A stretch of DNA of 19,453 nucleotides, from IMG/VR virus record IMGVR_UViG_2675903433_000028, positions 1-19,453 of that record. One strand, written 5' to 3'. A program made the position numbers and the translations under genes. Origin of the DNA: a virus. Its lineage: Duplodnaviria > Heunggongvirae > Uroviricota > Caudoviricetes. The notes under the pieces are model-generated. The model saw nothing but the letters and a program-made list of their open reading frames with translations. It searched no databases and was not told where the DNA came from. This document shows, piece after piece, positions 9,432 to 19,453 of this stretch. Each line of letters starts with the position of its first letter. Within the stretch, counting starts at the first letter, position 1.

Positions 9432-10313
9432 TCAGCGTCCTGAATCGGTATACCCCCATACAAAACCAGGTTGGACACTAAGGTCTGATAGCTTTTCAAT
9501 CCCCACCTGTGGAATGAAGTCGGTAGCCCGAAAGGGCACCCACAGACGGGTATACGCACCCTCTGTGGACTCCTTTGTATCCTGGTTTGGGCATTTGTGC
9601 GACGGGAGACGAAGACGCATTTCGCCTTTATCGATGTAGCACGGTAAACCATGTTCGAGCTTTTCATGAGCCAGCCGGATGTGTGCCGCCAGCTTCATAA
9701 ATTCAGTATCAATGGCCATCCGTTTGATCGTTTCATAACGACGCTCAGCCTGCTCTTCACGAGTACCGCTAACATCGTTATAAAGTTCACACTGATAAGC
9801 GAATTCCCAAAAACGCAAATCAACGATCGCTTCTTTGAATTCCGCGTCGTCTTCAGGTGGTAATGCTGCACGGCGCATCTCCAGCATTTCCATTGCCCAA
9901 CCATCAAGCGGCACGATACGCCATTGATAAGGCACTCCCTCTACAGACACCTCAATATCGTCAATGAACGGTTCCACTTCCAGGACCTGGATATCTTCAG
10001 CCAGAGCATTCATATCGCAATCGTAATAATGCTCTTTACCGCAATGTTTACAGGTGTAGGTGAATGTCTCGACCGGTGTTTCACGGGAGCCGGTAAATAT
10101 CCACCATAACGCGGTAATCCGGTCCTGCGCCGTCCATGTCAGGGGATCATGTTTCGCGGGTTCAGCCAGCAAGGCTTTTAAATACGCCGTTGTCTGTTGT
10201 TCTTGTTCCTCCGGTGTTATCGAGTTGAAACGCATCGCATCAGCAATATTTGGCTGACGGAACTGGATCAATTCAGTTGGCCGCGATGGTAGCGGGAAAA
10301 GAGGTAAAAGCAT
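9432..10313 (-). CDS. Acidic 293-aa protein directly upstream of the tape measure gene; candidate tail assembly chaperone
   Basis: Strong AAGGAG Shine-Dalgarno 7 nt before the ATG at 10313. The protein is Asp/Glu-rich and sits where G/GT chaperones are found. Assignment is positional. Confidence 0.4.
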   Translation of the reverse strand: MLLPLFPLPSRPTELIQFRQPNIADAMRFNSITPEEQEQQTTAYLKALLAEPAKHDPLTWTAQDRITALWWIFTGSRETPVETFTYTCKHCGKEHYYDCDMNALAEDIQVLEVEPFIDDIEVSVEGVPYQWRIVPLDGWAMEMLEMRRAALPPEDDAEFKEAIVDLRFWEFAYQCELYNDVSGTREEQAERRYETIKRMAIDTEFMKLAAHIRLAHEKLEHGLPCYIDKGEMRLRLPSHKCPNQDTKESTEGAYTRLWVPFRATDFIPQVGIEKLSDLSVQPGFVWGYTDSGR

Positions 10314-10327
10314 CCTTGCTCCTTAAT

Positions 10328-10939
10328 TCAAAGAGAAAAGCTAAAGCCCAGAAGGGAAGCCAAAGAACTTGAGGATTGGTTAAACGTGCTGTGCAATGCG
10401 AAGGTCATTGGGAATGACTTAAATTCAGTAACCTGATCTCGCGCATAGGTGACATCGCCGGTAGTGACCGGGAATACCGTCATCTCATTTTCCAGTTTGG
10501 TTAAACCGGAGGACAGCAACCGATAAATACGCACATTGAGCAAATATTTAGACGGTATATTCCCGGTACCGTCCGGATTGATCACCCGACTTTTTGCCGT
10601 CTTAAACCAGTCCAAAACGAGGCCATCAACGGTATCCCTGACCATCATCGTTATCTGCCCAGGCGAACGCTCCGTTGGCTGAAGGATATTCCCTCCGCCG
10701 ATTTTAATCGTTTCATATTCGATGCTGTAATCGTGGTAGGTAATATCTTTGGCAAAGAAATCTGCCCCCTCCAGTCCATCAACTTCGACAGAGAACTGCC
10801 ATCCTTGCGCGAACAGCATTTTGTTCATGATGATTGACGTCAGCTTACCAACTTCCCGCTCACCAACGCCGGAGCCAAATAATGTCGTCGTTAATGCCGA
10901 AGATACATAAGACTTTACTGAAGCAACATTAAGCCCCAT
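10328..10939 (-). CDS. Putative major tail (tube) protein, 203 aa
   Basis: GAGGGGG Shine-Dalgarno before the ATG at 10939. Size and position (two genes upstream of the tape measure) suggest a tail tube protein; no motif recognised. Confidence 0.35.
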   Translation of the reverse strand: MGLNVASVKSYVSSALTTTLFGSGVGEREVGKLTSIIMNKMLFAQGWQFSVEVDGLEGADFFAKDITYHDYSIEYETIKIGGGNILQPTERSPGQITMMVRDTVDGLVLDWFKTAKSRVINPDGTGNIPSKYLLNVRIYRLLSSGLTKLENEMTVFPVTTGDVTYARDQVTEFKSFPMTFALHSTFNQSSSSLASLLGFSFSL

Positions 10940-10949
10940 ATCAGCCCCC

Positions 10950-11558
<609 letters not shown>

Positions 11559-11710
11559 AGTCATTTGTCCATTGAGTGGGAATATTGCCGTCCGGGAGTA
11601 ATATGGTATCATTAAGTTAGAGTAGGTAGTGTAGATGGAATGAGGAGTATCATATGGTTATCACACAATCAGGTTGCTTTGAGTCAGGTTGTTTTGAGTA
11701 AAACAATAAA

Positions 11711-11737
11711 ACGCCCTTTAATGGGCGTATTTTTTTT
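11711..11737. terminator. Intrinsic terminator (bidirectional type) between the tail operon and the AT-rich membrane protein gene
   Basis: acgccc-tttaat-gggcgt is followed by attttttttt on the plus strand and preceded by an A-rich run, giving a U-tract on the minus strand as well. Confidence 0.6.
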
Positions 11738-11747
11738 AGGATTTAAA

Positions 11748-12641
11748 ATGCATTCTTTACAGAAATACATAAAACATAAATATACTCACTTAACTTTTTT
11801 TCTCTCATTACTTTTTTTCATGATATTTGAATCTCGAGAAGATATTATCAAGAAAATATTATCTTTTTCTCTCGATGAAGTTTTACCATTCTTAATGTTT
11901 GCGTTCTTCTCCGCCTTTATCAGCATAACAATAAAGGAAAAGATAGCAAAAAAATACCCAGAAACAAACGATGGGATTACCATTATCGCTTTAATCTTTG
12001 GTGTAACACTATATAGTGTATTTATATTATATTATTTATATGGTGATGTATACCAATCCACAATTGCTTTACTTATAAGTTCTGTGCTACTTGGCTCTGG
12101 GTGGTGGGTTCAGGCTACTGTGAGTAAAGTAGCCGCAAGAAAATCACACACCTTAAATACACTAATGAATCAAAGAAACAGTGAATTATTTCACAAAAAA
12201 GTCTCATCGGTAGCGAATACGTTCGGGCTTAGAAAAACCATAAATGAAATTATTGCCAAACAAAGACTTATCCCAAATGATAAAGATTTAAAAAATAAAA
12301 AGGTCCATGATAAATACATATCAGCAGGTAATGATATGTTCTTCGTTCTTAATTATTATGAGTTTATCTGTTCAGGAATAATAAATGGAGACTTTGATGA
12401 AGATTCAATGAGAGAATGTCTTGGACAAATTGTTCCGGGTCTCGAGGTTAGAGCATTTCATTTTATAAGAATTGCAAGAGAAATTTCAGGGAGTAGCTGC
12501 TTCTGTAATTTTGTTGCTGTTTCAGATAAATGGTCTACTAATGGAGGATCTCTTATTCTCAGACACGAGAAAGGAGAACCTGTGATCAATAACCTGACCC
12601 ATTGCTTTGAAGAAACAGCCTGTTATAACACAACATCTTAA
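11748..12641 (+). CDS. AT-rich membrane protein: N-terminal ~4 transmembrane helices plus ~170-aa soluble C-terminal domain; function unknown (candidate superinfection-exclusion or abortive-infection type moron)
   Basis: The ORF-track ORF begins at 11640 but reads through the terminator hairpin. The ATG at 11748 has an AGGA Shine-Dalgarno 8 nt upstream and is taken as the start (MHSLQKYIKHKYTHLTFFLSLLFFMIF...). Hydrophobic segments are obvious in the first ~130 aa. Composition is visibly AT-rich compared with the tail genes. Confidence 0.6.
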   Translation: MHSLQKYIKHKYTHLTFFLSLLFFMIFESREDIIKKILSFSLDEVLPFLMFAFFSAFISITIKEKIAKKYPETNDGITIIALIFGVTLYSVFILYYLYGDVYQSTIALLISSVLLGSGWWVQATVSKVAARKSHTLNTLMNQRNSELFHKKVSSVANTFGLRKTINEIIAKQRLIPNDKDLKNKKVHDKYISAGNDMFFVLNYYEFICSGIINGDFDEDSMRECLGQIVPGLEVRAFHFIRIAREISGSSCFCNFVAVSDKWSTNGGSLILRHEKGEPVINNLTHCFEETACYNTTS

Positions 12642-12647
12642 TATTTT

Positions 12648-12674
12648 GTAACCCATAATCGCTTTATGGGTTAC
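12648..12674. terminator. Hairpin between convergent genes (9-bp stem), probable terminator
   Basis: gtaacccat-aatcgcttt-atgggttac; the flanking U-tract is only moderate. Confidence 0.4.
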
Positions 12675-12692
12675 GTTAAATTTGCAATAAAA

Positions 12693-13169
12693 TTAATCGC
12701 CGCGCTTTAAGCATCCATCGTTTTTAGCTTGTTGATATAACTTACTTAGCCCAGAAAGAGGAAATGTAGCAATTTTTTCATTATCAACATAAGCATCTAT
12801 CGCATTAGCATTTGAATCTGCTGCATCTTGCCAAAAGGCATACCACCAAGAATCTCCAACCATTGACCCAAGATTGCTAAAAGGGTATTGCTCACCATCT
12901 AGTGTTAATACTATTTTACTCTTGTCAGCATTATACTCTTTTTTATTATTCGACGACCTTAGCAACAGGCCTAAACTACCTGCACTATCTGGTGATCCAT
13001 ACATGAAACCCATATCACATAAAAAACTTATCTTATCACCATTTTGATTATGGATTGTATATTCTCTCCCCCCTCTATCTTCAATTACATTCCATTGTAG
13101 AGGATCAATTTTTGCAAATACTCCTGCTGAAATTAACGATACAAATAATAAAAACCATCTCATATTCAT
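12693..13169 (-). CDS. Secreted/periplasmic protein, 158 aa, with N-terminal signal peptide; function unknown
   Basis: N-terminus MNMRWFLLFVSLISAGVFA-KID resembles a cleavable signal peptide. There is no lipobox Cys and no C-terminal aromatic residue, so it is not an obvious Lom/Ail barrel or lipoprotein. AT-rich. Confidence 0.6.
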   Translation of the reverse strand: MNMRWFLLFVSLISAGVFAKIDPLQWNVIEDRGGREYTIHNQNGDKISFLCDMGFMYGSPDSAGSLGLLLRSSNNKKEYNADKSKIVLTLDGEQYPFSNLGSMVGDSWWYAFWQDAADSNANAIDAYVDNEKIATFPLSGLSKLYQQAKNDGCLKRGD

Positions 13170-13191
13170 TTTTCTCGCTTCTTATCTGTAA

Positions 13192-13542
13192 TTATTCTGC
13201 AATATCATTTGCCCATTGCACGGCAGCAAAATGAGTGCCAAGGCCACTCAGGAAAGCAATTATTCCCAAAACAATACTAGCTGCTGTTGATTCAAACAAA
13301 GCACCAATGCTATAGCCAATAGCTCCCCATACTAAGCTAAAGACAATCATCAATGGTATTGCCAGAAATTTTATTCTTAAACTAAAAATCAGTCCAAGAA
13401 ATGAACCACCAAAGGCCCACCATGATTTAGACATTAAACCTATCAGTATTGACAGAATTCCTATTTCAATAAAGAGAATATTAGATTGCTCTTCATTGAA
13501 TTTCGCATTTGTTACACCTTTACGAACATGTTCAGATGACAT
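13192..13542 (-). CDS. Small inner-membrane protein, 116 aa, 3-4 predicted TM helices; co-transcribed with the downstream secreted protein gene
   Basis: GGAG Shine-Dalgarno before the ATG at 13542. The sequence is largely hydrophobic (ILFIEIGILSILIGL..., FLAIPLMIVFSLVWGAIGYSIGALF..., IVLGIIAFLSGLG). There is a 22-bp gap to the next gene. Confidence 0.6.
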   Translation of the reverse strand: MSSEHVRKGVTNAKFNEEQSNILFIEIGILSILIGLMSKSWWAFGGSFLGLIFSLRIKFLAIPLMIVFSLVWGAIGYSIGALFESTAASIVLGIIAFLSGLGTHFAAVQWANDIAE

Positions 13543-13688
13543 GATTAACTATCTCCAGCCACAGATAAAACGCCTTAAAATAACATGTTGTAGCACAAAG
13601 TTTCACCATGCAATGGTCAAAGTCTTTGATCCATATCAATTAGAGTTATACATTTTAGTTGCATAGCTAATAATTTATACGGCCGCAA

Positions 13689-13701
13689 ATTGCTCTAATT
13701 A
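13689..13701 (+). promoter_or_regulatory. Copy 1 of a recurring intergenic motif ATTGCTCTAAT(T/A)A
   Basis: attgctctaatta; the same core occurs at 15380-15393 and 17145-17160, always in plus orientation and upstream of a plus-strand gene. Confidence 0.4.
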
Positions 13702-13795
13702 TTTTGTTTTTTTTAGTTTCATATGCTACATTAACTCGCTTGCGTGCTAATGCATTTTCGGTTTATCCTAAACAAGCATCTTAGTAAAACGGATG

Positions 13796-13854
13796 CCGGG
13801 ATTGGAACCCCGGATAATGCAAAAGGCGACACAGACGCCAAAAGCGTCTTTTTT
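13796..13854 (+). ncRNA. Possible small RNA or leader element: hairpin followed by an intrinsic terminator, with no upstream plus-strand ORF
   Basis: Hairpin ccggg-attggaac-cccgg (13796-13813), then agacgc-caaaa-gcgtct + TTTTT (13833-13854). The nearest upstream genes are on the opposite strand. Confidence 0.35.
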
Positions 13855-13903
13855 ATGTCATGCCATCGCACAACCATACGTAGCACATAGCTACGAGATC
13901 AAT

Positions 13904-13979
13904 GGTAGTGCTGGCTGGGCTGCCAAAAGGCAGGCCGGTTCCCTTTTGCGCCGGTAGTTCCAACCCAGTCAGTGCTACC
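13904..13979 (+). promoter_or_regulatory. Long RNA stem-loop in the leader of the antirepressor operon (16-bp stem; plus-strand specific because of three G-U pairs)
   Basis: ggtagtgctggctggg (13904-13919) pairs with cccagtcagtgctacc (13964-13979): 13 Watson-Crick plus 3 G-U pairs on the plus-strand RNA, which would be C-A mismatches on the minus strand. The loop contains an inner hairpin caaaagg/ccttttg. Confidence 0.5.
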
Positions 13980-14039
13980 GCCATTGAGATTGGAACCTCA
14001 CGCGGTAGCTCCTTAAATTAGCAAAAGGAGGCTGCCAAT

Positions 14040-14261
14040 ATGGCTACTATCCCTACCCCAACTCATTCTGAATTCATCTGGCGCTTTTACTCCTGCCAGA
14101 AACGTCACTATCACTTCGTTATTGCACCGACAGAAGATGAGGCCCGCTCTCAGCTTCCTGACGCCCCATGTATTTTCTCTGCCCGTTTTTCCACTGATTC
14201 ACGCAATTCTCTCAGTTACTGGTGCCTCCCTGTTAACGCTTCTGCTCAGGAGGGACTATGA
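14040..14261 (+). CDS. 73-aa hypothetical protein, translationally coupled to the downstream antirepressor
   Basis: Strong Shine-Dalgarno (AAGGAGG) 8 nt upstream of the ATG. The stop overlaps the next start (ATGA at 14258-14261). An anti-Shine-Dalgarno segment ctcctt (14009-14014) can pair with aaggag (14025-14030). Confidence 0.55.
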   Translation: MATIPTPTHSEFIWRFYSCQKRHYHFVIAPTEDEARSQLPDAPCIFSARFSTDSRNSLSYWCLPVNASAQEGL

Positions 14262-15301
14262 GAACGTCATTAGTCACCCGTGAAGAAATGATTGAGGCAA
14301 TTGAACAGCACACAGCCTGTATGCCGACACGGGAGATCCCCGGCGCAATTGCCAACTATTTCATGATAACCAGGCGTTTTTATACCCGAACAGATAAGGC
14401 AGTGATCAACAGGCTACTGATAGCCGAGATCAGGGATTATTTGATTGAACAAGGACGTCTACGTTACGCAACGGTGGCAGCAGAAATGAGAAAGGAGGCA
14501 CATAGAGTGACCGGTAAAAATTTGAATGTTGAGAAACCAGCACCTGTTACGTCAGCTACGCCAACACCAGCCGTGAATGTCATCCCCAACACCGGAGACA
14601 CAATCGACAGCCAAACATTGTTGAAGATGGTCAATGAGGCACGCAAGTTATGTGGAGAACCAGAGGTTAGAAACAATAAATTCATCGAAAAAATACTCGA
14701 TGAACTTGAAGGTGAATTTTACACAAAAAGTGCAAAATCCCATGGCACAAGGGCTGGGCGCTCTTTTGAGGTCATCACCATGACCTACAAACAAGCCTTG
14801 CGAGTCGCCGCGCGCGAGTCAAAAGCGGTCCGCCGTTCGCTGATCGACAAACTGGAAGAATTGCAGCAGGCAAACTCCCCTGCCCCATCGATCCCCCAAA
14901 CATTACCAGAAGCTCTACGCCTGGCTGCCGAGTTGGCAGAACAGAAAATGCAGTTGGAACAACAGCTGGTGGCCGCAGCCCCTAAAGTCGATTTTGCCGA
15001 CCGGGTATCAGCGGCTAATGGAATCCTGATCGGGAACTTTGCAAAGGTTGTTGGGCTTAAGCAAAACGCGTTGTTTGCCTGGTTACGGGAGAACGGCATC
15101 CTGATAGCGTCCGGTGGACGTAAAAATGTGCCGTTCCAGCAATACATCAACGCCGGGTATTTCACGGTGAAAGAAGTGGTGCTGGATGATGAAAATGGCT
15201 ACCAGATACGGCTGACGCCCCAATTAACGGGTAAAGGCCAGCAGTGGTTAACTCGCAAGCTACTTGATGCTGGTTTGTTAAAACCAGTAGCAATAGGTTA
15301 A
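14258..15301 (+). CDS. Phage antirepressor-like protein with C-terminal KilAC/Ant-type domain (347 aa)
   Basis: The C-terminal ~130 aa (PKVDFADRVSAANGILIGNFAKVVGL...GYFTVKEVVLDDENGYQIRLTPQLTGKGQQWLTRKLLDAG) look like KilA-C/antirepressor domains and are clearly paralogous to the C-terminus of the next gene. Confidence 0.65.
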   Translation: MRTSLVTREEMIEAIEQHTACMPTREIPGAIANYFMITRRFYTRTDKAVINRLLIAEIRDYLIEQGRLRYATVAAEMRKEAHRVTGKNLNVEKPAPVTSATPTPAVNVIPNTGDTIDSQTLLKMVNEARKLCGEPEVRNNKFIEKILDELEGEFYTKSAKSHGTRAGRSFEVITMTYKQALRVAARESKAVRRSLIDKLEELQQANSPAPSIPQTLPEALRLAAELAEQKMQLEQQLVAAAPKVDFADRVSAANGILIGNFAKVVGLKQNALFAWLRENGILIASGGRKNVPFQQYINAGYFTVKEVVLDDENGYQIRLTPQLTGKGQQWLTRKLLDAGLLKPVAIG

Positions 15302-15304
15302 CAA

Positions 15305-15339
15305 AAGAAAAAAACCTGCCAGCAAACTGGCAGGTTTCT
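15305..15339. terminator. Hairpin terminator between the two antirepressor genes; U-tract is stronger on the minus strand
   Basis: aaaaaaa-cctgccag-caaa-ctggcagg-tttctg. Read on the minus strand the hairpin is followed by TTTTTTTCTTTT; on the plus strand only by TTTCTG. Confidence 0.55.
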
Positions 15340-15379
15340 GAGCAGATCGTCCAACCCGATCTGGATCGAGTCAGAAAAA

Positions 15380-15393
15380 TTTGCTCTAATAAA
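15380..15393 (+). promoter_or_regulatory. Copy 2 of motif TTGCTCTAAT(T/A)A, about 75 bp upstream of the second antirepressor gene
   Basis: tttgctctaataaa. Confidence 0.4.
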
Positions 15394-15465
15394 TTTCGTT
15401 TTCTAAGTGCAAAGAATCACCATTTCGAGCTGGTGATTGAAGGTTGATGCAAATTTGGAGAAAAA

Positions 15466-16266
15466 ATGCAACAAACATTCAATGCGGATATGAATATATC
15501 AAACCTTCATCAAAATGTCGATCCTTCAACCACTCTGCCCGTTATTTGTGGTGTTGAAATTACGACCGACCGCGCTGGCCGTTACAACCTTAATGCTCTA
15601 CACAGAGCGAGCGGACTCGGTGCCCATAAAGCGCCAGCTCAATGGCTAAGAACGCTGTCAGCTAAACAGCTCATCGAAGAGCTTGAAAAAGAAACTATGC
15701 AGAATTGCATAGTTTCGTTCGAAGGCCGTGGCGGCGGCACTTTTGCCCATGAATTGCTCGCAGTGGAGTACGCTGGTTGGATTTCTCCTGCGTTTCGGCT
15801 GAAGGTAAACCAGACATTTATCGACTATCGAGCTGGAAGATTACAACCTGCTATTCCGCAGAGTCTCCCAGAAGCTCTCCGTTTGGCTGCCGACCTGGCA
15901 GAGCAAAAGCAACGGCTGGAGCAAAAAATGCTGATGGATGCACCTAAAGTCGAATTCGCCGAACGCGTTGCTACCGCCAGCGGGGTTCTAATCGGCAACT
16001 ATGCCAAAGTGCTCGGCCTGGGCCAAAACTATCTCTTCACCTGGTTGCGTGATAACGGAATTCTGATCGCAACCGGTGAACGCAGGAACGTCCCCAAACA
16101 AGAATACATATCCCGTGGGTATTTCACCCTTAAAGAAACCGTGATCGATACAAGCAATGGAAGCAGGATTTCTTTCACGACTCGTATAACCGGCAAAGGT
16201 CAGCAGTGGCTGATGAAGCGATTGCTTGATGCTGGTGTGCTGGTACCTGTCGCGGCTACGCGCTAA
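15466..16266 (+). CDS. Phage antirepressor with N-terminal KilA-N (APSES-type DNA-binding) domain and C-terminal KilAC domain (266 aa)
   Basis: GGAG Shine-Dalgarno 7 nt upstream. The N-terminal region (LPVICGVEITTDRAGRYNLNALHRASGLG...AQWLR...GRGGGTFAHELLAVEYAGWISPAF) looks like KilA-N. The C-terminal half aligns by eye with the preceding gene (PQSLPEALRLAADLAEQK...GKGQQWLMKRLLDAGVL). Confidence 0.7.
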   Translation: MQQTFNADMNISNLHQNVDPSTTLPVICGVEITTDRAGRYNLNALHRASGLGAHKAPAQWLRTLSAKQLIEELEKETMQNCIVSFEGRGGGTFAHELLAVEYAGWISPAFRLKVNQTFIDYRAGRLQPAIPQSLPEALRLAADLAEQKQRLEQKMLMDAPKVEFAERVATASGVLIGNYAKVLGLGQNYLFTWLRDNGILIATGERRNVPKQEYISRGYFTLKETVIDTSNGSRISFTTRITGKGQQWLMKRLLDAGVLVPVAATR

Positions 16267-16284
16267 CAGACGTAGTAAGAACCA

Positions 16285-16302
16285 CCAGCATTGTAATGCT
16301 GG
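16285..16302 (+). promoter_or_regulatory. Stem-loop overlapping the first ATG of the following ORF
   Basis: ccagcat-tgta-atgctgg; the 3' arm contains the ATG at 16296. Confidence 0.4.
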
Positions 16303-17141
16303 CTAAAGTCACTTTCCTGAGCTGTATAACGATGAGCGATTTTACTTTTTCTGGCTATGAATTGGCCTGCTTTGTAACACACTCCGGTCTATCCCGTAGC
16401 GCCGGGCATATCCTGTCGCAATGTGCAAATCTCGCGGCAACAACCAGTGAATACTTCATTCACAAGCCTCACCGCCTGATCGCGGCAGAAACTGGTTATA
16501 GCCAATCAACCGTCGTTCGTGCATTCCGTGAAGCTGTAAACAAAGGAATTCTGTCTGTAGAGATTGTTATCGGCGATCACCGTGAACGTCGCGCTAACCT
16601 GTACCGGTTTACACCATCCTTTTTGGCCTTCGCACAACAAGCCAAAAATGCGCTGATTGAAAGCAAATTAAAGATCTCTTCAGCCGCAACCAAGGTTAAA
16701 ACTGTTCTCGCTAAGACATTGGCTTTATTTAATTTTTTATCCACACCCCCATGTCAAAATGATACCCCCTCCCCCTGTCAGGATGACGTGGCAATAAAGA
16801 ATAAGAAGTCACAAGTTAAAAAAACAAAAAGATCAGTTTCCGACGGTGCCGGAACGACCAGCCTCAAAAAACTGACTTCATGGATCGCTGAAGCAAAAGC
16901 AAAGGCTGACAATCTGCGGTTATCCAAAAAACGCGCTCAAAAACATGAGTTCAAGCAGAAAGTAGAGGCGGCAGCGCGGAAATATGCTTACCTGAAGAAC
17001 AAGCGTTCTCCTGATATTGGCTGGATATCAAACTTCGATAATCTACCGCATTGCATGACGGTAAACGAAGCTCTTAATGCGGTATTAGCCAAAAATAAAG
17101 ATAACGAACAATGGGGTATACCGGTAGGATTCAGAGGGTGA
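16296..17141 (+). CDS. Hypothetical DNA-binding protein with a helix-turn-helix-like segment and a Lys-rich C-terminal half (start uncertain: 16296 or 16332)
   Basis: Segment ...AAETGYSQSTVVRAFREAVNKGIL... resembles an HTH. The C-terminus is basic and K-rich. Neither candidate ATG has a good Shine-Dalgarno. Confidence 0.45.
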   Translation: MLAKVTFLSCITMSDFTFSGYELACFVTHSGLSRSAGHILSQCANLAATTSEYFIHKPHRLIAAETGYSQSTVVRAFREAVNKGILSVEIVIGDHRERRANLYRFTPSFLAFAQQAKNALIESKLKISSAATKVKTVLAKTLALFNFLSTPPCQNDTPSPCQDDVAIKNKKSQVKKTKRSVSDGAGTTSLKKLTSWIAEAKAKADNLRLSKKRAQKHEFKQKVEAAARKYAYLKNKRSPDIGWISNFDNLPHCMTVNEALNAVLAKNKDNEQWGIPVGFRG

Positions 17142-17144
17142 TAG

Positions 17145-17160
17145 ATTGCTCTAATTATAA
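17145..17160 (+). promoter_or_regulatory. Copy 3 of motif ATTGCTCTAATTA, about 150 bp upstream of the DUF3800-like gene
   Basis: attgctctaattataa, immediately after the stop codon at 17139-17141. Confidence 0.4.
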
Positions 17161-17309
17161 CCATGCATACTTTCAACACCTCTAGTTTGCCATGAGGAAA
17201 ACTCATAGGCGTCCTGGTAAGATGACGTAGTTAGCAAATCAGAACGTCCAATTATTGCAATTAATAAACAACTAACGGACAATTCTACCTAACAATAAGT
17301 GGAGTTAAC

Positions 17310-18014
17310 ATGTTGAACCGAAGAACATTTAATGTATTCTGCGATGAATCCTGTCACCTACTAAATGATCATAATAAAGTCATGGTATTGGGTGCGCTTT
17401 GGTGTCCTGGCACTATCACAAAAAAAATTGCTAGAGACATCAAGGGATTAAAATTAAAACACAATTTAAAACCTGATTTCGAAATCAAGTGGACTAAAGT
17501 ATCTGCGTCCAAAGTTGAATTTTACTTAGAGGTCGTAGATTACTTCTTCAGCAACCCAGCATTGCGCTTTAGAGGTGTTGTTGTTCCTGATAAAGAGCAA
17601 CTGGACCATGCTCGATTCCATCAAGATCATAATACTTTCTATTATAAGATGTTTTTTTATGTCTTAAAAAACATAATAGAAAGTAACAACACATACAATA
17701 TCTACCTAGATATAAAAGATACTTTAGGTATTGAAAAAATTGAGAAATTAAGAGGAGTTCTTCACAATGATCGCTATGATTACAATCATGAGTCGATAAA
17801 CAGAATTCAACATATACGATCTCATGAAGTGCAACAATTGCAGCTAACGGATCTTTTCATTGGTGCGTTAGGCTACGTTCATCGAGGAATGAATAGCAAC
17901 GCGGGAAAAATCCAAGTCATAAACAGGATAAAATCACATACAAACAGGGAGTTACTAAAAAGCACTCTTCCAACAGAAAGTAAATTTAATATTTTCGTGT
18001 GGGAGGCTCGCTGA
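17310..18014 (+). CDS. DUF3800-like protein (234 aa), function unknown
   Basis: GGAG Shine-Dalgarno 5 nt upstream. The N-terminal FCDESCHL and C-terminal QLQLTDLFIGALGY motifs match my recollection of the DUF3800 family (conserved Asp/Glu near the N-terminus, Q-L-x-D-L near the C-terminus). The gene is AT-rich. Confidence 0.5.
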   Translation: MLNRRTFNVFCDESCHLLNDHNKVMVLGALWCPGTITKKIARDIKGLKLKHNLKPDFEIKWTKVSASKVEFYLEVVDYFFSNPALRFRGVVVPDKEQLDHARFHQDHNTFYYKMFFYVLKNIIESNNTYNIYLDIKDTLGIEKIEKLRGVLHNDRYDYNHESINRIQHIRSHEVQQLQLTDLFIGALGYVHRGMNSNAGKIQVINRIKSHTNRELLKSTLPTESKFNIFVWEAR

Positions 18015-18289
18015 TGCTTCAAATGCCAGATTTATTGTACTTCAATGGAAGTTGGCAAGAGTATATAGACGATGTATATGATGTTGTTAGAGAAGATATT
18101 TTAATCTCTAATATAACGTTTAAGGGTCTCCCTGTTCGATTACGTTATTCACCGGAATATGATGGGAAAGAGTTCGGATTTTGGCATTTAGTATCAGAGG
18201 GAAAAATAGAAGAAGAACGAATACCTGATCTTCAAGAAACAGCCCGTATACGGGCTGTTTTAACAGATATCTACAGTAAGCGGTCCTAA
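18014..18289 (+). CDS. 91-aa hypothetical protein, translationally coupled partner of the DUF3800-like gene
   Basis: The ATG at 18014 overlaps the upstream TGA (TGATG), with a GGGAGG Shine-Dalgarno 7 nt upstream. The ORF-track start at 17999 is a GTG inside the upstream gene. Confidence 0.5.
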   Translation: MLQMPDLLYFNGSWQEYIDDVYDVVREDILISNITFKGLPVRLRYSPEYDGKEFGFWHLVSEGKIEEERIPDLQETARIRAVLTDIYSKRS

Positions 18290-18344
18290 ACTGTGGGTAT
18301 CTTCAAAGATCAGACTATCAGGGAGCTAAAGCCAAAACAGTGGC

Positions 18345-19163
18345 TCAAGCGATACGGGCAACCGAGCTCTGGTTTGCTGCCGGTGGCAGGGCGATGAGCT
18401 TGTCACATTCCATAATCACGTACTCCGGGATGAGATCGAATCTGGACGGATCCAGTTGACAGATGAACTCATTTTCAATGTGGTACGTTTCGTTAACGAA
18501 TTTTCGTATTACCGGATGGTCCTGATCCAGTTCCAGTAAACGGAATACCTGCAGTTTTTCATATCCGTTACGACAGCGACGGTACAGGTTTTTTATTTCA
18601 TCTGGGCTGCTGACGAGAGCCTGAAGTCGCGGGTAATCAAAACTGTCCACATACTCCCGGATATCCCGCAAGGCCTGCTGAATTTTCTCAGGAGCCATTT
18701 TGGGGTAGCCCGTGCCCGCAGCGGCAGGCTCGCGATAATCCAGCGGGGCGACGCGTCGATGGAATAGATTGGATAGAAGCTGATAAGCATCACCACGTTC
18801 GTCAACGATTTCAAAGTAGCGACGAAGATAGATGAGCTTAATGATCTCCTCACAGTCTGCTGACGCGGTGATGGATTTGCAGATCTGCATGAATGTCATG
18901 ATATCGCCGTCGTTAACAGGTAATTCTTCTATGACTCCAGCAGACAGGCGCAGGCAGGAGGCGGTCACCTGATTACTGAACAACCTTCTGACTGACTTCA
19001 GCGTGTCAATCACAGGCTCCACGTCATGCGTCAGCATAGTGCTGATGCTGACGGATGTTACAAAAAATGCAGCGTATGGCGTTGAGATAGAAAGTCTGGT
19101 GCTGGAGATAAATACACCTACATCATGATAAAAAAGGGCCAGCGACTGACCTGAAGAAGACAC
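18345..19163 (-). CDS. Hypothetical protein (231-272 aa; N-terminus uncertain), convergent with the DUF3800 cassette
   Basis: Long ORF with ordinary composition. The ORF-track start at 19163 is a GTG and the first ~40 residues look non-protein-like. The first ATG is at 19037 (MLTHDVEPVID...) but lacks a Shine-Dalgarno. No motif recognised. Confidence 0.45.
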   Translation of the reverse strand: MSSSGQSLALFYHDVGVFISSTRLSISTPYAAFFVTSVSISTMLTHDVEPVIDTLKSVRRLFSNQVTASCLRLSAGVIEELPVNDGDIMTFMQICKSITASADCEEIIKLIYLRRYFEIVDERGDAYQLLSNLFHRRVAPLDYREPAAAGTGYPKMAPEKIQQALRDIREYVDSFDYPRLQALVSSPDEIKNLYRRCRNGYEKLQVFRLLELDQDHPVIRKFVNETYHIENEFICQLDPSRFDLIPEYVIMECDKLIALPPAANQSSVARIA

Positions 19164-19306
19164 TGGCTAAAAGGCTTTGCATGTTTGTAGATACTTATTT
19201 TTCACAGACAGCAATGATGCCTGTCAATATATTATTAATATGCTGATTGTTTCAGTTACAGATGCTTTATTAAGGGAAAATGTCACGATCGGTGCAAAAG
19301 TGGTTT

Positions 19307-19447
19307 GAACCGCCCCGGTTTTCCTGAAGGCTGGGTCATATCCCTCCGGCAGAAGCAGAAAAAGCTTATTATGCTTCCATCAGAAACGATGATCTGGCAG
19401 CCTGAGTTCACAGATAAAACACTCTCCAGGAAAACCGGGGCGGTTCA
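19307..19447. repeat. 141-bp element bounded by perfect 20-bp inverted repeats (MITE-like / imperfect palindromic unit)
   Basis: GAACCGCCCCGGTTTTCCTG at 19307-19326 and its exact reverse complement CAGGAAAACCGGGGCGGTTC at 19428-19447. Each arm is itself a small dyad (AACCG-ccc-CGGTT). The interior shows partial dyad symmetry (aagcttattatgctt). Confidence 0.7.
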
Positions 19448-19453
19448 GACATT

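Follow-up and report, generated by a model that had tools for sequence, protein, structure and literature searches.

The closest described counterparts of the locus analysed here are found in the phage-plasmids P1 and P7 and in a computational catalogue of defence candidates. The P1 RefSeq table (NC_005856) gives the gene order icd–ant1/2–[PkilA, OrepL]–kilA–repL(oriL)–[Orlf, formerly Op55]–rlfA–rlfB–pmgF–bplB, in which rlfA and rlfB carry the identifiers P1_gp051/gp052; the same pair is called rapA and rapB in P7, and it has been a named object since the P1 and P7 genomes were annotated. PADLOC-DB 2.0.0 lists it as PDC-M04, which is cassette CAS_00034 of a 'guilt-by-embedding' study (Payne et al., bioRxiv 10.1101/2024.01.29.577857) whose 145 'phage defence candidate' systems were drawn from genes found inside loci for BREX, DISARM or type I restriction-modification. 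The name PDC-M04 appears in one supplementary table and not in the full texts of the papers searched. We analysed a stretch of 19,453 nucleotides (positions 1 to 19,453 of the virus record IMGVR_UViG_2675903433_000028; hereafter the window, whose numbering is used throughout), in which a preliminary description had singled out a two-gene cassette at 17310–18289 as the best candidate for something undescribed. The cassette is almost certainly the rlfA–rlfB pair of a P1-like phage-plasmid, with rlfB truncated in this copy, and is thus already described as P1 rlfA/rlfB, P7 rapA/rapB and PDC-M04.

Megablast of positions 17100–18400 returned E. coli plasmids in 1196 of 1214 places, together with phages P1, P7 and JL22, and the features beneath the match were repL, rlfA and rlfB (rapA and rapB in P7). 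Nucleotide identity over 17100–18232 was 97.2% to P1, 98.8% to P7 and 100% to JL22, and the RlfA protein was 99.1% identical to P1 RlfA. Gene order agreed with that of P1 as far as rlfB. The gene kilA (15466–16266, plus strand; Pfam ANT, 2e-32; KilA-N, 3.7e-21) occupies the position of P1 kilA, which opens the lytic replicon operon controlled by C1, and is followed by repL (16296–17141, plus strand; phrog_2418, 519 bits), which encodes the lytic replication initiator, contains oriL and is annotated as repL in P1 and P7; the operator Orlf and the cassette come next. The cassette had been placed beside antirepressor genes, which holds for kilA, the only one with antirepressor-type domains, and not for the replication initiator repL. 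In P1 the locus continues with a complete rlfB of 154 amino acids (aa) and then pmgF–bplB. The window differs in that its rlfB stops after codon 73 of 154, followed by 18 foreign codons, and in that pmgF and the native downstream region have been swapped for DNA of F-type and enterohaemorrhagic E. coli (EHEC) plasmids. The segment rlfA–rlfB–pmgF is documented as a low-GC variable segment that is often replaced (PMC9603915, PMC6906374). Carriage of the pair is patchy: most of the cassette was present in 122 of 1201 matching E. coli records, about 90% of the matching P1-like records were without it, and the P1-like phages RCS47 and phi456 do not have it.

The layout of the cassette stood up to inspection. 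rlfA (17310–18014, plus strand) is intact and encodes 234 aa. Its TGA (18012–18014) and the rlfB ATG (18014–18016) have one base in common, and a GGAGG Shine-Dalgarno sequence for rlfB, read off the sequence, lies within rlfA at 18002–18006 (plus strand), 7 nt before the ATG at 18014. These coordinates confirm the TGATG overlap and internal ribosome-binding site that had been noted, and the translational coupling drawn from them is upheld as a prediction. Alignment of homologues places the true rlfB start at ATG 18014 (MLQMPDLL...), GTG 17999 being the mechanical start in the list of open reading frames (ORFs); as read, the ORF runs from this ATG to a stop at 18287–18289 and encodes 91 aa. The cassette is indeed more AT-rich than its flanks, with a GC content of 0.325 over 17400–18000 against 0.47–0.52 on either side. 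The low GC and the position in a variable region ('region 5' of the P1 literature; PMC9603915) are consistent with the horizontal acquisition that had been suggested.

The 91-aa partner, previously taken for a natural gene, consists of the first 73 codons of the 154-codon rlfB (18014–18232, plus strand) fused to a foreign tail of 18 codons (QETARIRAVLTDIYSKRS) and a stop (18233–18289, plus strand), with the junction at 18232/18233. The reading frames of the window and P1 agree to ...EEERIPDL (codon 73) and then part, an alignment with P1 RlfB and 29 homologues ends after the same ...RIPDL, and Megablast homology to P1-type records stops at 18232–18235. In profile searches the truncated protein, RlfB', matched PDC-M04B with 83 bits (residues 5–81 on model positions 7–86 of 162) and phrog_16230 over positions 1–83 of 154; the PDC-M04B models have 162–176 positions and phrog_16230 has 154, of which the window protein covers just the first 83–88. 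RlfB' keeps residues 1–73 and loses the entire predicted β-sheet, the C-terminal helix and the motifs RCxRIxWI, YVVVL and WLLKTAY of the full-length protein. Such a short form is exceptional, as at least 80% of rlfB was covered in 100 of the 102 PLSDB plasmids that carry the gene. The junction nevertheless recurs, 100% identical, outside the window: at least four sequenced plasmids of E. coli, which come from different hosts, have it.

From 18233 onwards the DNA is 98% identical to EHEC-type virulence plasmids. The same DNA occurs with complete genes in an F-type plasmid (L003), where it begins 33 nt past the vapC stop and runs into a convergent gene for a 712-aa AAA ATPase. It brought with it a terminator-like hairpin with an 11-bp stem (18236–18261, plus strand; −19.1 kcal/mol, z = −7.4 against shuffled sequences), whose sequence also lies downstream of vapC in L003 and which now falls within the tail ORF, so that the 18 tail codons are a translation through this hairpin. 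We also considered a divergent rlfB allele, given the likeness of 'ARIRAV' in the tail to the native 'KRIRWI', and ruled it out, since F-type plasmids have this DNA, from 18233 onwards, as the spacer between vapC and the ATPase gene. Beyond the tail lies a fragment of the AAA ATPase gene (18345–19038, minus strand), foreign plasmid DNA that encodes the C-terminal third of the 712-aa protein (PDC-S06 model positions 478–688 of 693); homology to the full-length gene ends at 19038. In intact F-type plasmids the full ATPase gene stands between vapBC and a pair formed by a SMODS nucleotidyltransferase and an S-4TM effector, in what looks like a small defence cluster.

The cassette had been placed at the right end of the element. 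It instead adjoins an internal junction with F-type/EHEC plasmid DNA, because in NZ_CP045829.1 the P1 backbone (genes of the size of bplB, 21, 22 and 23, then parB/parA) returns beyond an insert of about 9 kb. In this plasmid (L001), which has the identical rlfB junction, the insert at 19246–27238 carries IS600, IS66 and IS91 fragments and the toxin gene cnf3. The corresponding segment of the window (18233–19453) had up to 49 match places per E. coli genome. Near its end, at 19303–19450, lies a 27-nt inverted repeat (93% complementary, arms 94 nt apart) that looks like both ends of an IS3-family element with the interior deleted, and which we take to be IS629-like.

RlfA of the window is 100% identical to the JL22 allele, which stands beside an intact rlfB, and the truncation is therefore recent. 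We conclude that this copy is probably a non-functional remnant, with an intact rlfA and a dead rlfB, and regard it as improbable that it still works as a system. As such it would be a poor candidate for cloning, except as a natural rlfB-truncation control.

RlfA had been assigned to the DUF3800 family on the basis of its 'FCDES' and 'QLxDLxxGA' motifs, and the profile searches bear this out. Pfam DUF3800 (PF12686) matched residues 8–189 with 53.1 bits against a cut-off of 21 (E 7.6e-14; profile positions 1–148 of 149), and PDC-M04A matched residues 5–233 with 316.5 bits (model positions 3–228 of 232). The two motifs correspond to a DE motif at D12-E13 (CDESCH) and a QxxD motif at Q178-x-x-D181 (QLTD). 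Among 69 homologues D12, E13, D134 and D181 are invariant and Q178 nearly so, and all four of these carboxylates are present in the window protein. RlfA has an RNase H-like fold of the RNase HII type, in which strand 1 ends with D12 and E13, D134 comes past strand 4 and a helix carries D181, a placement that reproduces the D-E-D-D layout of the RNase HII active site. The protein is thus a predicted RNase HII-like nuclease. It is not a housekeeping RNase HII (rnhB), as judged from the absence of any RNase HII match in Pfam or NCBIfam; only the fold and the carboxylate pattern are common to the two. NCBIfam contained no family for RlfA or RlfB, and searches of the Protein Data Bank (PDB) sequences with profiles of both proteins gave no meaningful match.

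Published modelling of other DUF3800 proteins agrees with the layout of RlfA, both for those of type VII retrons, in which the protein is a predicted effector (PMC7736814), and for the TPR-DUF3800 proteins associated with Cas12a2 (PMC10910872). In type V-A2 and VI-F loci, DUF3800 has also been described as an accessory nuclease with an RNase H fold, in connection with Cas12a2/a3 (PMC12669027). The likeness to all of these lies in an RNase H-like DUF3800 domain with an N-terminal DE motif and a predicted role as immune effector, and the differences lie in the surroundings and in one motif. The type VII retron proteins lack the Q of the QxxD motif, which RlfA has; no reverse transcriptase domain was found in the scanned flanking ORFs (kilA, repL and the AAA ATPase fragment), and no retron RNA by Rfam. 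Unlike the Cas12a2/a3 and type VI-F loci, the window has no CRISPR array or TPR domain, and the partner of the DUF3800 protein is RlfB.

Weinberg and co-workers reportedly drew a link in 2017 between RNA motifs and DUF3800 genes. A scan for the Rfam motifs DUF3800-I to -XI, relaxed to E ≤ 10, came up empty for both the window and the rlfAB locus of P1. An RNA as a general third component of the system was dropped, given a DUF3800 RNA motif in just 2 of 42 related loci, and the link appears, from these scans, to touch the RlfA subfamily only rarely. A DUF3800-V RNA was seen in a metagenome-assembled genome (MAG) of Candidatus Anammoxibacter (L023, 6616–6711, minus strand), 420 nt past rlfB. A DUF3800-VIII RNA was seen in a Bacteroidetes MAG (L016, 2144–2206, minus strand), between hsdM and an ORF6N-domain gene of a type I restriction-modification operon and at a distance of 2.8 kb from rlfA on its upstream side; no second DUF3800 gene turned up among the four ORFs that were scanned in the stretch from hsdM to rlfA.

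Beyond P1, the two genes travel together. RlfA had 5364 relatives at E ≤ 1e-5, many of them 50–65% identical, in Proteobacteria, Bacteroidota, Chloroflexota, Cyanobacteria, Planctomycetota, Verrucomicrobiota and Firmicutes. We took 80 genome loci (non-P1, from more than 10 phyla) and searched their ORFs with P1 RlfB. An RlfB homologue was found directly downstream of RlfA and on the same strand in 79 of the 80, mostly with an overlap of 1–32 nt; the single exception is a locus cut by a contig end. We therefore regard the pair as an obligate unit. The RlfB homologues at the 79 loci have a median length of 169 aa and range from 155 to about 190 aa; each was taken to begin at its first in-frame start codon, so that the N-termini are possibly over-extended. 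At two loci the ORF containing RlfA is longer (L065, 2589–4379, 596 aa; L076, 4731–5699, 322 aa), which may reflect N-terminal fusions or simple ORF-calling artefacts, and at L076 the RlfB homologue is split over two ORFs.

The genes around these copies often belong to restriction-modification or other defence systems. The gene immediately upstream encodes HsdS at 13 of 70 loci and a DNA methyltransferase (Mod/HsdM) at 6 of 70, often with a 4-nt overlap with the rlfA start, and the gene immediately downstream encodes a ResIII/HsdR-type protein at 17 of 72. Further neighbours are KwaB, SIR2, Abi_C, GmrSD, AAA_13 and PD-(D/E)XK proteins. At about a quarter of the loci the pair lies inside a restriction-modification operon, either of type I (hsdM–hsdS–A–B–hsdR, as at L043 and L078, which are Marinomonas or Pseudomonas loci) or of type III (mod–A–B–res). 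Co-occurrence and synteny had been proposed as a check across prophages; the pair proved to be conserved as a unit, in copies that are mostly chromosomal and often sit in restriction-modification operons.

A comparison with the PADLOC models had likewise been proposed, and both window proteins matched PDC-M04: protein A over its full length, protein B, adjacent on the same strand (TGATG, 18012–18016), over the first half of the model. The restriction-modification embedding of the family was reproduced independently by the loci described above; the window itself differs in being a phage-plasmid locus behind a repressor operator, and not part of a restriction-modification operon. The PDC-M04 match, the obligate pairing and the restriction-modification embedding make a defence or toxin module a reasonable reading of the family, as the preliminary description had supposed, although this copy, with its truncated partner, is a poor candidate for one.

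Judged from sequence and gene context, an anti-phage function of the intact rlfAB module is an evenly balanced possibility. The module might provide immunity of the abortive-infection type beside restriction-modification, following a PrrC-like logic. RlfA would recognise or cut an invader-derived RNA–DNA hybrid or structured nucleic acid, and RlfB, possibly a RelE/colicin D-like RNase, would act as a second nuclease or as a regulator. PrrC, an anticodon nuclease, is a single ABC-ATPase–nuclease protein whose gene lies within type I restriction-modification operons. The resemblance of rlfAB to PrrC/RloC is one of arrangement, with a nuclease module between hsdS/hsdM and hsdR, and by analogy suggests a back-up that would step in once restriction has been disabled; the two are unrelated in sequence and fold, rlfAB being an RNase HII-fold protein with a small partner. 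The fullest version of this idea is tentative, and we hold it with some doubt: intact RlfAB would be a mechanistically new two-nuclease immune module, in which RlfA senses or cleaves RNA–DNA hybrids or structured nucleic acids and RlfB, as a RelE/colicin D-like RNase, halts the cell, serving as a back-up to restriction-modification and captured by P1 under C1 control to exclude rivals. If that version is true, the window allele would be a natural rlfB knock-out, usable as a control.

RlfB was described as having no recognisable domain, and neither Pfam nor NCBIfam matched it. The names 'oxidoreductase' (NCBI records, for example P0126 and P0130) and 'replication protein' (PHROGs phrog_16230, RefSeq P1) were set aside, as there is no Pfam, NCBIfam or PDB sequence match behind either. 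In a structural model of full-length RlfB (predicted local distance difference test score, pLDDT, 89.6), a helix at the N-terminus (residues 14–31) is accompanied by short helices, an antiparallel sheet of four strands (residues 94–134) and a helix at the C-terminus. On this model a RelE/colicin D-like RNase fold is a tentative, weakly supported lead. Comparison with BECR-fold toxins (RelE/YoeB/YafQ/HigB and the colicin D/CdiA-CT toxins) gave low scores, RlfB is about 60 aa longer than these and has no antitoxin-like partner, and RlfB' of the window is without the part that holds the predicted sheet. No small DNA-binding antitoxin of the type II toxin–antitoxin kind adjoins rlfB, its sole partner being the 234-aa RNase HII-fold RlfA.

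These properties bear on the alternative that the pair is a toxin module serving the phage or plasmid, in which RlfB would be an RNase for host shut-off or post-segregational killing and RlfA a regulator or second nuclease. The weakness of the RelE-like lead counts against it, and RlfA, an RNase H-fold protein of 234 aa whose catalytic residues are conserved, is atypical as an antitoxin. P1 moreover already has an addiction module, phd–doc, and the copies that lie within restriction-modification operons are chromosomal and not carried by plasmids. We consider this alternative unlikely.

How the pair is controlled is relevant to a second alternative. The recurring motif noted ahead of the cassette is present and is the C1 repressor operator: ATTGCTCTAATTA occurs at 17145, 13689 and, with one mismatch, 15380, three occurrences in the window against 0.10 expected by chance, and the three copies coincide with the P1 C1 operator positions Oc4, OrepL and Orlf. 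Orlf itself (17145–17161, plus strand; ATTGCTCTAATTATAAC) coincides in position with the protein_bind feature 'Orlf' of NC_005856 and has the identical sequence; it lies 3 nt past the repL stop and 165 nt ahead of rlfA. Orlf puts the cassette beside the phage immunity circuit and is no argument for an independent moron. A candidate promoter, PrlfA, is predicted at 17255–17283 (plus strand); it is a weak sigma-70-like site (TTGCAA, 17-nt spacer, GACAAT) that agrees with 8 of 12 consensus positions, falls under the scan threshold and has a conserved counterpart in the P1 record, annotated 'predicted sigma 70 promoter PrlfA'. Our statements on Orlf and PrlfA derive from the GenBank feature table of P1. 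A consensus scan of the repL–rlfA interval found no sigma-70 site and no terminator, by which the weak PrlfA is neither confirmed nor excluded. We suggest that rlfAB would be transcribed mainly by read-through from the C1-repressed PkilA, together with kilA–repL, upon derepression, and that PrlfA may add low constitutive expression. In P1vir infection, according to a preprint, rlfA/B fall into one group with repL, that of the early genes for lytic replication.

Such control would suit the role implied by the original name 'rlf', that of a lytic-replication accessory in which the RNase H-like RlfA turns oriL transcripts or R-loops into primers or clears them away, with RlfB as a cofactor. The pair stands directly past repL/oriL and behind a C1 operator, with no terminator between, the P1 annotation reads 'possibly associated with lytic replication', the P1vir preprint places the pair with the lytic replication genes, and the RNase HII fold of RlfA would fit. 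However, repL is not among the most frequent neighbour families of the 80 non-P1 loci, nor are replication genes in general frequent there; the pair lies in restriction-modification operons and defence islands at these loci. Knock-down of rlfA and rlfB by CRISPR interference left the plaquing efficiency near 1 (PMC10695390), so that P1 plaque formation is independent of rlfAB, and there are P1-like phages without the pair, as are some nine-tenths of the matching E. coli P1-like records. We consider an accessory role in lytic replication distinctly unlikely. P1 ranks among the most thoroughly studied phages, but the label 'replication-linked' has been a guess since its genome was annotated. The label is positional and probably wrong, and the pair probably belongs with immune or abortive-infection modules: it is obligate across phyla and embedded in restriction-modification loci, it brings together an RNase HII fold and what may be a RelE-like one, its knock-down does not affect plaquing, P1-like phages exist without it and its neighbours outside P1 are defence genes.

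A third alternative is that the pair counters host defences, the phage RNase H-like enzyme destroying retron msDNA, guide RNAs or signalling molecules. That the pair is phage-borne and probably expressed on derepression would be in keeping with this, as would the fold of RlfA, which is that of a nuclease for RNA–DNA hybrids. Most homologues, however, are encoded on chromosomes, within restriction-modification operons of the host and in translational coupling with hsdS or mod, which is the signature of host defence, and other DUF3800 proteins belong to retron and CRISPR systems; we judge anti-defence quite improbable. It is more improbable still that the rearranged allele has become newly functional, with RlfA alone, or the 91-aa RlfB' through an RlfA-binding N-terminal helix, active or constitutively on: rlfA is intact with all its catalytic residues, the junction is stably carried in identical form by at least four E. 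coli plasmids and the window, and RlfB' keeps the conserved FWH and SEG motifs, but full-length B is present in 79 of 80 loci and 100 of 102 plasmids, RlfB' loses over half of the predicted fold, its tail is a translated terminator hairpin and the other pieces of the same insert (AAA ATPase, insertion-sequence ends) are plain debris.

Several observations weigh against the explanation that we favour, namely that rlfAB is an immune module of which the window holds a dead copy. The study from which PDC-M04 derives itself calls its 145 candidates untested (10.1101/2024.01.29.577857). Foldseek with RlfB gave nothing significant, and hhalign of RlfB against RelE and YoeB, with the sequences of these two toxins entered by hand, found nothing. 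The repL–rlfA interval, which contains the C1 operator but no consensus promoter or terminator, suggests mainly lytic expression, which would be unusual for a prophage-borne defence gene. As for the copy in the window, the truncation is recent, so that neither decay nor retention is readable from its sequence, and the 73-aa N-terminal fragment could still bind RlfA. With these points taken into account, we consider the explanation as a whole fairly probable.

Relatives of RlfA also occur in unrelated temperate phages, which indicates that the module has been captured by phages more than once. A homologue with 43% identity lies in the prophage-like element of Bifidobacterium phage Bbif-1 (GQ141189.1, 34961–35653), and homologues with about 26% identity are found in Mannheimia P2-like phages (PHL101 group). 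Elsewhere in the window, a second AT-rich island (11640–13542, GC 0.30–0.36) lies where P1 has simABC. It encodes a 333-aa DUF4760 membrane protein (plus strand), a 158-aa secreted-looking protein (minus strand) and a 116-aa membrane protein (minus strand), none of which matches PADLOC, and homology to the related plasmid L001 is broken between about 11600 and 14070. Rfam placed the P1 C4 antisense RNA at 13898–13985 (76 bits), with an isrK-family match at 13776–13854 (58.5 bits) directly upstream of it, in the c4 leader region.

The window documents a P1-like phage-plasmid that carries virulence-plasmid DNA at a known variable region, and the cnf3-bearing insert of L001 indicates that P1-like phage-plasmids acquire virulence cargo at the rlfAB–pmgF segment. 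What is possibly new is modest: the link between P1 rlfAB and PDC-M04, the embedding of the pair in type III as well as type I restriction-modification operons, and the tentative RelE/colicin D-like fold of RlfB. Type VII retrons and RNA-targeting CRISPR loci also contain DUF3800 nucleases, and a tractable representative from E. coli and P1 would make the question of their substrate testable.

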